Of a stretch of 38,298 nucleotides of DNA, positions 9,001-12,000 are shown piece after piece. The stretch is taken from contig CAVIWQ010000001.1 of the NCBI GenBank assembly GCA_963646605.1, forward strand, positions 15,936 to 54,233, in the 5' to 3' direction. Position 1 is the first letter of the stretch. The number at the start of each line of letters is the position of its first letter. The position numbers were made by a program. Origin of the DNA: Bacteroidaceae bacterium (GTDB lineage: Bacteria > Pseudomonadota > Alphaproteobacteria > RF32 > CAG-239).

Positions 9001-12000
9001 CGGCTTCTTCTAAAGATGCTTTTGTCGCAAATGTTGCCGAAAAACGTTATTTGTGGACTGCGCGTGCTTTTGCGATTATTACGGCAATCAGTATGTGCTG
9101 TAATATAATTTTGCTTTTAGCAATAGCGCAAGTTATCCCTTTGTACCGTGTAGAACCGTTTTTGGTCACTTTTCAAAATAAAGAAGAACAGGTTTACAAT
9201 ATTCAGCCGGTAAATCAAAATTTAGCTGAGGCAAAAAACATTACGGAAGTGTTTGTGCGCCAATATGTTTTGATGCGCAGTTCATTTAATCGTGATATTC
9301 CCGAAGTGGAAGCTCGCTGGATGCCGGGGGGGGCTATTCAGGAAATGTCATCGGCGACGGTTTATGATGACTTTGTTAAAAACACTGCAAACAGAGCATT
9401 GGATCTAATTCGTACGCGCCGCATGATTAGAGATGTCAGAATTATGACAGTTAATGAATTAGGTTCTGGAATATGGCAGGTTGAATATGAAACGCGTGAC
9501 ATGTATCCGGATTCTAAAGCTCCGGAAGTAAATTACTGGACAGCTTCATTGAAAATTGTATATCGTTATAAAAGCGTAAAATTCAAAGAACGTTTGAAAA
9601 ATCCGGTCGGCTTTACGGTCGTTAACTACTCTTTGAGTTATAATAAAGTAAAATAAGGTGGATAAAGCTATGCTATCAAAATCTATAAAAACAAATATCT
9701 TCGGTTTGGTGGGCGTGCTAATGGCCGGTCAAGTCTGGGCGCAGGCAACTATTAGCAGCATGGATCAAAATGCCGACCAATCGCAGGGGCAATATCAGCC
9801 AATGGATATGAGTTATGCCGGATTTAATTCTTTAGGAATGATGCAAAGCGCATGGCTGGATCCTCTGCAAAATTTGGGCGAAGGACAAACCAAACCGGCA
9901 TATTCTAAATATTATTGGTCGCCGGATTTGGTGCTTCCATTGCGTCTTCGCGAAGGCATGATTACAATGATTAATTTCCCAGAGTGGGAAATGATCGAAG
10001 ATATTTATATCGGTGATAATTCCACATTTGACGGACAAATATCCGGCCCCAGCACTTTGTTGCTGTACCCGCGTAAAGGCGCTAATGTTGGTGTTGATAC
10101 CAATATTATCGTTTTCGGACGCTCAGGAAATCGCTATGTTTTTTATGCGCGCAGCGAGGGTGTAAATACAGAACGTTTAACTAATGCAATCGTTGATATT
10201 GATGTTATCGGCGCGGAAAACGGCGGCAGCGGCAGTGGAAATTTGGGAAACGGAAATTCCGGTGGCCGCGTTAACGCTACAAAATATTACGGAGCCGGCG
10301 GCAAGTCAGTTGATTCAACTTTTACAAAACGCAACCAAAAAAACAGTTGGGTTGAAAATATTCCGTTGGATCCGACAAAATTTCGCTTTGACATAGAAGT
10401 ATATGTGCCTAATCCAGATGATGTTATAATTGCGCCTGAGCGTGTTTGGCGCGATGATATTTTCACCTATATTGATCTTGGTGCAAAATCACTGAATATG
10501 CATCAGCGCCCGATTGTAACATTGATTGTTGAAAGAATGGAAGTTCCGGTCGGTTTTCGTACCAAAGGTCCGAATAATCGTTTGATTATTGTTGAAGCTA
10601 TTGGGGATATGGTTTTGCGCAACGGAAAAAGAATTGTTTGTTTGAAGATGCGTCGTTCCGATGATGCCGGACTTGATAATGCCAGCTATGCAGATGATAT
10701 TACGGCTAACGAATGGGATAGAGGAGATAAAATTCCAAGCATAAAAGCAAAAGCCGGCGGAGCCGAATATCCTGATTTCAGCGCCGGTCCCGTAGGCGAT
10801 GCAGCTAACTATCCAACCGGACAATTTGACATTAATATGAACGGTAGTGAGGTTATTGTTCCTGAATACGGCAATGGCAGCGGTAACGTCGGTGGCAATG
10901 GAAACGGAAATGGTTCCGGACGCGGCGGTAATGGTGCCGGTATGGGGGCAAACTATGGTGCCGATGGCGGAAATTTTGACTATTCAAAAATGCACCGTAT
11001 TCAAAATACTCAGCAATTTGATCCGGCAGCAAGCAGTTTGTCAAATCAGTATCGCTATGGTTCAGGATTTACAGATGGCGCCAATTCCAATATTTCTATA
11101 GAACTTGGAACAGATGCCAATGTTGAAAATTTGGAGAGTTTATGGGATAACCTTTCCGATAAATATGCCAAAATTTTGAAAAATTATGATCCTTTCTTCT
11201 CGGTAGATGCACCTGCCGACGGTCAAGGTAAAGAGCTGTTTCATCTCCGCATCGGACCGGTTAAAACTCTTGATGAAGGTGACAGTGTTTGCAGCAAATT
11301 GGGAAGAAACGGTGTATTTTGCAGTGTAGTTAGGACCCAATGAGTAAAGAAGTATTAACACATTCTGAAAGTTATATTAAAAAAACCAACCGCATAATTC
11401 TTGCGGTTGGTATAACTTCTTTTGTAATTTTTATTTTAGGACTTTATCTTTTATTTTCAAGCGATGAGCCTATTGAAGAATATAGTGAGCCTGTATTTAC
11501 TGATAATGACGATGCTCTCAATGTTACGACAACAGCACCGGTGGAAGACAGCATAGAATTCAGTACGGTTGATGACGGCGTGCCGCCCATAACCACAACT
11601 CCTAATCCGGTTGCTTTAGGGCAGGTTGTTATAGGAGCAGATGCAAAGAATGTTTTAACCATAGGCACAAACGGGAAAGCATCTATAACAATTATGTCGG
11701 TTCAATTGGCAGAAGCTCCGTTTGATGGTTTTGAATATAGCGACCAATGCACAGGGAAAATACTGCGAGGTAAAGAAACCTGCGACATTACTATGAGCTG
11801 GATGCCTGTTGTTGCCGGAAATGTGCAAAACAATTTTATTGTTGCCTGGCATGAAAGCAATGTGACGCAAGCCAGTGCAAAATCTGAAAAAGTTCCTGTT
11901 TATGGTAATGCGGTTAATAAAGAGGACTGCAATTTTTGCGATACGGCAGGAATCGGCGGAGGCGCCAAATCGGGGACGAATGGCAAAGAGAGTTTATCAA

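Follow-up and report, generated by a model that had tools for sequence, protein, structure and literature searches.

How a type IV secretion system (T4SS) fixes its core complex in the cell wall, and how some of these machines come to be polar, is poorly understood. Canonical VirB systems have the lytic transglycosylase VirB1, but their core complex is not known to carry a module that binds the wall. The question is raised by a 38,298-nucleotide stretch of DNA (the window; contig CAVIWQ010000001.1 of assembly GCA_963646605.1, positions 15,936 to 54,233) from an alphaproteobacterium of the RF32 lineage, in which the gene for VirB9 encodes a C-terminal domain of the SPOR fold. The protein, here called VirB9-SPOR, is assigned from its sequence and gene context as the VirB9 subunit of a chromosomal T4SS, similar to the rvh system of Rickettsiales, in an uncultured gut bacterium. 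Is its tail a genuine SPOR domain, how far has the fusion spread, and does it tie the secretion machine to peptidoglycan?

A VirB9 protein that ends in a SPOR-fold domain

The VirB9-SPOR open reading frame (ORF) occupies 9658-11343 on the + strand and encodes 561 amino acids (aa) plus a stop codon (Table 1). As called, it begins with a GTG that overlaps the 3′ end of the preceding virB8; Met5, at 9670, is where most homologues begin and may be the true start. Its stop codon and the start codon of the following gene are interlocked in the sequence ATGA. The Pfam CagX/VirB9 model (PF03524) gives a full match to aa 83-330 (E 2.3e-11; profile positions 4-196 of 198), and a sequence search of the Protein Data Bank (PDB) returned Xanthomonas VirB9 (6gyb) weakly, over both halves. 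The protein misses the TIGR02781 equivalog cut-off widely (27 versus 218 bits) and is therefore a divergent member of the VirB9 family. Like the canonical VirB9, TraO and TrbG proteins (A. tumefaciens, pKM101, Xanthomonas), it has a signal peptide and N- and C-domains that cover the full CagX profile, and its gene lies between virB8 and virB10, beside that of a small lipoprotein. Canonical VirB9 is about 250-300 aa long and ends with its C-domain (the Xanthomonas chain 6gyb_b has 255 aa), whereas VirB9-SPOR has in addition a conserved N-terminal extension of 50 aa, a Gly-rich insert between the two domains, a tether of 140 aa and the SPOR domain. It is a variant on the known VirB9 theme, with an accessory domain of a wall-binding type.

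The original prediction, made from the DNA sequence before any database search, had described a complete VirB9 followed by a Gly/Asn-rich linker and a SPOR domain at 11092-11340. This layout is borne out by Pfam scores above the cut-off, by AlphaFold2 (AF2) and Foldseek and by hhalign, and the domain as now delimited (11089-11340) agrees with the earlier coordinates to within one codon. The strings then quoted also lie where they were placed: GNGSGNVGGNGNGNGSGRGGNGAGMG at aa 405-430 (nt 10870-10947) in the tether, the first Gly/Asn stretch at aa 184-215 (nt 10207-10302), and ...FHLRIGPVKTLDEGDSVCSKLGRNGVFCSVVRTQ at the C-terminus, directly before the stop codon.

Membership of the tail in the SPOR family is secure by predicted fold and by homology. 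The search with the Pfam SPOR model (PF05036; gathering cut-off 21 bits) that had been proposed for the tail gave a significant match at aa 480-559, scoring 22.2 bits when the whole protein was searched and 27.6-28.1 bits for the tail alone. Among 34 diverse homologous tails, 25 match this model independently (E<=0.01), down to 21% identity to the window's tail, and none of the 34 matches any other Pfam family. An AF2 model of aa 470-561, built on the alignment of these 34 sequences, has a mean pLDDT of 91.4 and a pTM of 0.79 and shows an RNP-like fold, as had been anticipated, of the topology β-α-β-β-α-β, with β1 at aa 479-486, α1 at 489-507, β2 at 511-517, β3 at 527-535, α2 at 538-549 and β4 at 556-559. 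The full-length AF2 model is poor (mean pLDDT 41) and confident in the tail only, where the same elements recur at pLDDT 80-87; it was not used for the fold search or for contacts between domains.

When the tail model was compared with the PDB by Foldseek, the first match was the SPOR domain of P. aeruginosa RlpA in complex with denuded glycan (6i09_A, E 7e-4, target TM-score 0.71), followed by the apo form of the same domain (6i05) and by B. subtilis CwlC (1x60). These three have a probability of 1.00 and target TM-scores of 0.68-0.71; DedD (6ztg) ranks ninth, and generic ferredoxin-like folds come later with much lower scores. A profile of the tail also aligns with an alignment of the E. coli FtsN, DamX, DedD and RlpA SPOR domains, taken from the annotated K-12 genome (hhalign probability 89.7%, E 1.8e-6, 70 columns). 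Like the SPOR domains (PF05036) of these proteins and of CwlC, which are about 75-85 aa long, the tail has the β-α-β-β-α-β RNP-like fold, and it shares with known SPOR domains the patterns x-x-h-(Q/E)-h-G on β1 and R-x-R-h-G-P on β3 and a Cys at the position of FtsN C312. As in FtsN and DamX, the domain is C-terminal and follows a long low-complexity periplasmic linker; unlike known SPOR domains, it is carried by a secretion-system subunit and not by a divisome protein or a wall hydrolase.

Conservation was expressed as mean identity to the window's protein across 46 homologues at 64-99% identity. It amounts to 89% in the VirB9 N-domain, 91% in the C-domain and 84%, without a gap, in the SPOR tail, versus 39% in the inter-domain linker (aa 184-215) and 36% in aa 336-440 of the tether. 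The tail is therefore constrained as strongly as the VirB9 core, a pattern that indicates strong purifying selection. The tether region (aa 336-477) ranges in length from 113 to 156 residues among the homologues and is best read as a spacer, two short conserved motifs excepted: GQFDINxxGSEVIVPEYG (aa ~386-403) and FDYSKMHRIQN (aa 440-450), which may be docking peptides. Their consensus forms, set within the otherwise hypervariable tether, are GQ(F/Y)DIxVGxSE(V/I)IVPxYG at 10813-10866 (+) and FDYSKM(H/Q)RIxN at 10975-11007 (+), and in the latter D441-M445 are at least 90% conserved.

Distribution of the fusion

The closest genome match is a human-gut metagenome-assembled genome, 'uncultured Azospirillum sp. 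UMGS418' (98% protein identity). VirB9-SPOR is encoded, at 52-98% identity, by 35 species-representative genomes, all of uncultured Alphaproteobacteria and mostly from human, mouse, deer or ruminant gut or rumen samples. The tail is present in every species-level genome whose contig covers the 3′ end of the gene (34/34), and one further contig ends early. An artefact of assembly or fusion is ruled out by the recurrence of the same architecture in 35 independent species-level assemblies.

Beyond these genomes, a word-indexed search yielded 1,482 relatives; nearly all of the best 120 are full length, and for many relatives the combination of PF03524 and PF05036 is already precomputed in databases. 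An exhaustive search of representatives at 50% identity matched 509 proteins. Using an iterated local hidden Markov model (HMM), the tail was found in 38 of the best 150 of these 509; about 20 more of the best 150 end in a further-diverged domain with two Cys residues (...A..lC......C...), which is homologous to the tail (hhalign probability 95.5%, E 1.5e-8) and no longer recognisable by the Pfam SPOR model, and the rest either stop at the C-domain of VirB9 or have tails rich in Pro and Ala. The Pfam model detects SPOR in 13 of the 98 proteins scanned (the window's protein and 97 representatives of 330-700 aa). These results suggest that the SPOR-like appendage diverges rapidly. The group with the diverged two-Cys domain includes the VirB9 of plasmid pMVF16-3 of Microvirga sp. 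VF16 (1746-3398 of the examined locus).

The tail also occurs on plasmid-encoded VirB9 proteins of 432 aa in Erythrobacter aureus YH-07 and of 430 aa in Sphingosinicella sp. BN140058, both of them cultured; there it is matched by the tail HMM (E ~1e-15) and not by Pfam SPOR. Their operons are otherwise canonical, running from VirB2 to VirB11 with VirD4, and the two proteins are annotated only as 'TrbG/VirB9 family'. It is absent from the plasmid VirB9 proteins of Paracaedimonas and Azospirillum argentinense. A tblastn search with the tail against 72,556 plasmids gave no match; the plasmid homologues were found through the VirB9 body together with the iterated tail HMM. Taken together, the sequence comparisons indicate an old fusion that has spread widely through a single alphaproteobacterial lineage of VirB9, in which it has been patchily retained.

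The original prediction had presented the fusion as undescribed. In the literature this stands: a search of the available library found no paper mentioning both VirB9 and 'SPOR domain', papers combining SPOR, type IV secretion system and peptidoglycan included none on such a fusion as judged from titles and abstracts, and nothing was found on RF32 with a T4SS or secretion system. To our knowledge, the fusion is absent from every characterised T4SS. Rarity does not stand, given 35 species-level genomes, more than 1,000 database proteins and the plasmid virB operons of two cultured bacteria. The converse possibility, that the fusion would prove common and already annotated in characterised systems, is correct as to its frequency and its automatic PF03524 and PF05036 annotation, but none of the systems concerned has been characterised. 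The architecture is undescribed in the literature, yet common and partly annotated by automatic means in sequence databases.

A proposed wall anchor for the core complex

Each core complex contains about 14 copies of VirB9, whose C-domain lies in the outer layer under the outer membrane, as seen in the pKM101, R388 and Xanthomonas structures. With about 14 copies, a ring of SPOR domains would therefore hang into the periplasm. In this proposal the N- and C-domains of VirB9-SPOR would build the outer-membrane core complex, and after the C-domain each copy would continue into a disordered tether of ~140 aa and end in a SPOR-fold domain stapled by a disulfide. The tether leaving the C-domain, at 113-156 aa, would be long enough to reach the peptidoglycan layer, where the tethered ring would bind the cell's own glycan strands via the canonical β-sheet face and thereby anchor the outer-membrane complex within the sacculus or fix its position there. 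AMIN, LysM and OmpA-like modules anchor other envelope machines in a similar way. For VirB9-SPOR we infer the peptidoglycan ligand, the multivalent binding and the anchoring alike, and put the probability of this reading at roughly 0.5.

The proposal is supported by the SPOR fold and the strong conservation of the tail, and by the retention of the R-x-R patch on β3 as H/R-L-R. It also fits the context of the gene, in which VirB8, a VirB7-like lipoprotein, a second VirB8, VirB9, VirB10 and VirB11 are encoded in one operon, and the presence of a signal peptide on VirB9. An M23 endopeptidase is fused to a VirB6-like protein nearby, and the machine would therefore handle the wall through parts of its own. 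A precedent of another kind is PilQ, the secretin of the type IVa pilus, whose AMIN domains bring the pilus apparatus to sites of division and to the poles (PMC5285504, PMC10653833). PilQ resembles VirB9-SPOR in that a peptidoglycan-recognition module is fused to the subunit forming the outer-membrane channel of a machine that spans the envelope and, since it is recruited to division sites that become poles, it is the best functional analogue of septal targeting. It differs in that the AMIN fold is unrelated, is N-terminal and belongs to another machine, and in that its function has been shown experimentally.

The face that would meet the glycan can be judged against the crystal structure of RlpA bound to its ligand. 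That work describes a single residue, a Gln, as highly conserved across the SPOR domains whose structures are known; its side-chain amide forms hydrogen bonds with both the MurNAc(1) lactyl carboxylate and the GlcNAc(2) N-acetyl group. A Phe makes a CH/π contact with the glycan, R309 and R311 on β3 bind the lactyl carboxylate, and simulations indicate that canonical SPOR domains reject de-N-acetylated peptidoglycan (PMC6895207). The hhalign alignment and the Pfam coordinates give the same mapping onto the VirB9 tail, with β1 I-S-I-E-L-G-T-D equivalent to W-M-V-Q-C-G-S-F of FtsN. The basic pair on β3 is kept as H529-L-R531, position 529 being R in 21 and H in 10 of the 34 diverse tails and position 531 being R in 29. 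Cys545 and Cys555 are invariant in all 34, so that a disulfide between them is probable. Cys555 aligns with FtsN Cys312, one partner of the FtsN disulfide (PMC6895207); unlike in FtsN, the second Cys of the VirB9 tail lies in α2 and not in β1.

Several observations weigh against wall binding. Sequence searches of the PDB by phmmer (whole protein and tail) and hmmsearch (tail profile) found no SPOR domain and returned low-complexity or chance matches plus the weak VirB9 match 6gyb, a result ascribed to the strong divergence of the SPOR family, for which fold and profile-profile methods are needed. Unlike known SPOR domains, the tail does not keep the hallmark Gln: Glu482 aligns with FtsN Q251, DamX Q351 and RlpA Q270, and the residue there is E in 24, D in 7, Q in 1 and another in 2 of the 34 diverse tails. 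Asp486 stands at the position of the Phe (RlpA F274, HMM position 12), which is G, D or N in relatives. The tail is acidic (pI 4.8, net charge -4), versus a pI of 9.4-10.3 for the SPOR domains of FtsN, DamX, DedD and RlpA, and denuded glycan, the SPOR ligand, is itself anionic. DotK and Lpg0657, in the Dot/Icm system of Legionella, have peptidoglycan-binding folds without the key residues and have been judged non-binding (PMC7511231). A role in wall binding is plausible from the sequence and the model, for a tail that departs from the family at one defining ligand contact, the Gln.

Gln and Phe having been replaced and the tail being acidic, binding of denuded glycan cannot be inherited from the family name. 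The original prediction had gone further and proposed binding to amidase-processed glycan, with targeting of the machine to septa or new poles. As stated this is not supported, given Glu or Asp for Gln in 31 of 34 tails, Asp for Phe and a pI of 4.8. That the tail prefers denuded septal glycan, and would so direct the machine to the new pole, is suggested by family membership but is rather unlikely, because Glu and Asp take the place of the Gln and Phe that contact the glycan in RlpA and because the surface is acidic.

The same departures favour a different explanation, in which the SPOR fold serves as a structural or protein-protein module, co-opted to dock on another part of an enlarged core complex (for example the β-flower proteins, VirB10 or the VirB7-like lipoprotein), and binds no peptidoglycan. 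Besides the change of Gln to Glu or Asp, of Phe to Asp or Gly and the acidic surface, this explanation can draw on the two tether motifs that resemble docking peptides, on the unusual giant partners encoded in the operon, on the drift of the domain beyond Pfam SPOR detection in more distant VirB9 proteins and on the precedent of DotK and Lpg0657, for which such a role was the conclusion drawn by the authors of the Dot/Icm structure. Like the VirB9 tail, these bring a fold of a peptidoglycan-binding type, lacking key ligand residues, to a T4SS outer-membrane complex (of the T4BSS type); unlike the tail, which is tethered and fused to VirB9, they have an OmpA-like fold and are lipoproteins in their own right, held rigidly in the disk (PMC7511231). 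Against co-option, the exposed residues that are conserved map to the canonical glycan-binding face of the sheet, the R-x-R patch included; a variable, disordered tether of 113-156 aa fits reaching a distant layer better than fixed docking; and the full-length AF2 model, itself poor overall, shows no confident contact. In our reading, the canonical ligand face (E482, H/R529, R531) remains the constrained surface of the tail, its chemistry altered. Co-option without wall binding is somewhat unlikely, while being the best of the alternatives.

The altered chemistry may instead mean that the tail binds a glycan other than canonical denuded peptidoglycan, such as de-N-acetylated or otherwise modified strands, or that cations bridge the binding, in which case its spatial cue would differ from that of septal SPOR proteins. 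The free amine of de-N-acetylated strands would suit Glu or Asp, and the replacement of Gln by an acidic residue holds throughout the family (24 E and 7 D of 34), which is not a pattern of random decay. As the Gln of RlpA contacts the N-acetyl group of GlcNAc (PMC6895207), a changed residue there could retune specificity. This explanation is quite improbable: it is purely inferential, and the retained R-x-R patch still points to a ligand that bears carboxylates. That the tail is a decaying, functionless relic of an old fusion would agree with its strong divergence or absence in distant VirB9 relatives, but is highly improbable in view of its 84% identity, absence of gaps and invariant Cys residues in 46 homologues, versus 36% in linkers, and of its retention in 34 of 34 species-level genomes with the 3′ end covered.

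Anchoring of VirB9-SPOR to the wall could be extended to a wider proposal, that an alphaproteobacterial T4SS lineage, from gut symbionts to plasmids of free-living Sphingomonadales, reads a mark of denuded or modified glycan at division sites through a retuned SPOR ring, so that the machine is pre-installed at the future pole. This is unlikely; if true, recognition of peptidoglycan would for the first time account for where a T4SS is placed in the cell, and the change from Gln to Glu would mark out a SPOR subclass of new ligand specificity. A conserved SPOR-fold domain on VirB9 offers in any case a concrete and testable handle. The isolated domain of ~90 aa can be expressed and assayed on sacculi, and the homologues on plasmids of cultured bacteria make deletions feasible. 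As a natural variant (Gln to Glu or Asp, acidic, with a Cys pair in α2 and β4), it can also serve to probe the determinants of denuded-glycan recognition. The host clade is uncultured and widespread in human and animal guts, and its T4SS is conserved and chromosomal; insight into this machine bears on how the clade interacts with its neighbours or its host.

The surrounding genes

The order of the genes is conserved in a relative whose protein is 64% identical, on contigs of 289-373 kb, and the T4SS is therefore chromosomal. The succession virB8, small lipoprotein gene, virB8, virB9, virB10 and virB11, with several large VirB6-like genes in a separate cluster, resembles the arrangement of the rvh system of Rickettsiales, which is also similar in its chromosomal, vertically conserved inheritance. 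RvhB9 proteins are not known to carry a SPOR tail. Unlike rvh, the system in the window has giant β-flower proteins and a fusion of M23 and VirB6-like regions. No VirB4, VirD4 or relaxase gene was found within the 38-kb window.

Table 1. Features of the VirB9-SPOR protein and of the genes around it (coordinates refer to the window)
Feature	Position	Strand	Basis
Four ORFs (572, 230, 461 and 1305 aa) without a Pfam or NCBIfam family, except for a weak SMC-like coiled-coil match	129-7848	+	Pfam/NCBIfam
VirB8	7864-8619	+	Pfam
62-aa lipoprotein with LSGC lipobox, VirB7-like by position	8720-8908	+	Sequence
Second VirB8	8931-9656	+	Pfam
VirB9-SPOR gene	9658-11343	+	ORF calling, Pfam, homologue alignment
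Signal peptide, aa 1-30 (...AGQVWA/QA)	9658-9747	+	Read from sequence; Sec type; 32% identity among homologues
N-terminal extension ahead of the Pfam VirB9 match, aa 31-82	9748-9903	+	84% mean identity, 46 homologues
VirB9/CagX body, aa 83-330 (N-domain ~83-183, C-domain ~241-335)	9904-10647	+	Pfam PF03524
Inter-domain linker 1, Gly/Asn/Ser-rich, variable, aa 184-215	10207-10302	+	Homologue alignment, 39% identity
Tether, G/A/N/D/S-rich, aa 336-477	10663-11088	+	Homologue alignment; AF2 pLDDT <50 throughout
SPOR-fold domain, aa 478-561	11089-11340	+	Pfam, AF2, Foldseek, hhalign
Glu482 at the hallmark SPOR Gln position (FtsN Q251, RlpA Q270)	11101-11103	+	hhalign, Pfam mapping
His529-Leu530-Arg531 on β3, at the R-x-R basic patch (FtsN R285; RlpA R309, R311)	11242-11250	+	hhalign
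Cys545 (α2) and Cys555 (β4)	11290-11322	+	Alignment of 34 diverse tails
1567-aa β-flower/YD-repeat protein with N-terminal transmembrane anchor	11340-16043	+	Domain scans
1453-aa VirB10 homologue: ~1000 aa of β-flower repeats, then TrbI domain at aa 1137-1328	16046-20407	+	Domain scans
VirB11	20420-21388	+	Pfam
326-aa protein with two tandem HTH_3 (Cro/C1-type) domains, between two T4SS gene blocks	26533-27513	-	Domain scan
977-aa protein: signal peptide, N-terminal M23 peptidase, VirB6/TrbL-like membrane region	27670-30603	-	Domain scan
884-aa ORF, no TrbL match	30616-33270	-	Pfam
439-aa ORF, VirB6/TrbL, sole TrbL match over the Pfam cut-off	33291-34610	-	Pfam
843-aa ORF, weak VirB6/TrbL match	within 30616-37166	-	Pfam

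The VirB10 homologue begins with an apparent cleavable signal peptide (...LGYAEA/QE, the stroke marking the cleavage site) and not with the canonical cytoplasmic and transmembrane N-terminus. The membrane anchor and the barrel of VirB10 may be split between this gene and the one before it, an arrangement reminiscent of the repeat-rich CagY.

On the minus strand lie four large ORFs, three of which have VirB6/TrbL matches. In the 977-aa protein the M23 motifs HxxxD (HEGYD) and HxH (HMH) are intact, and the fusion looks like a peptidoglycan endopeptidase dedicated to the T4SS that replaces the VirB1 lytic transglycosylase. The possibility that this nearby M23 domain is a LytM-type amidase activator that makes the SPOR ligand was considered and dropped: with its zinc-ligand motifs intact it is apparently an active endopeptidase, and no denuded glycan would be produced. 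The protein with two HTH_3 domains is a candidate local regulator.

Upstream of the T4SS genes, the order of the four ORFs at the start of the window is kept in the 64%-identical relative, where the first has a weak HmpF match. The sign of the GC skew flips exactly where gene orientation switches from + to -, at ~21000-22000, with the cumulative skew peaking at ~21 kb; composition therefore follows the transcription strand here.

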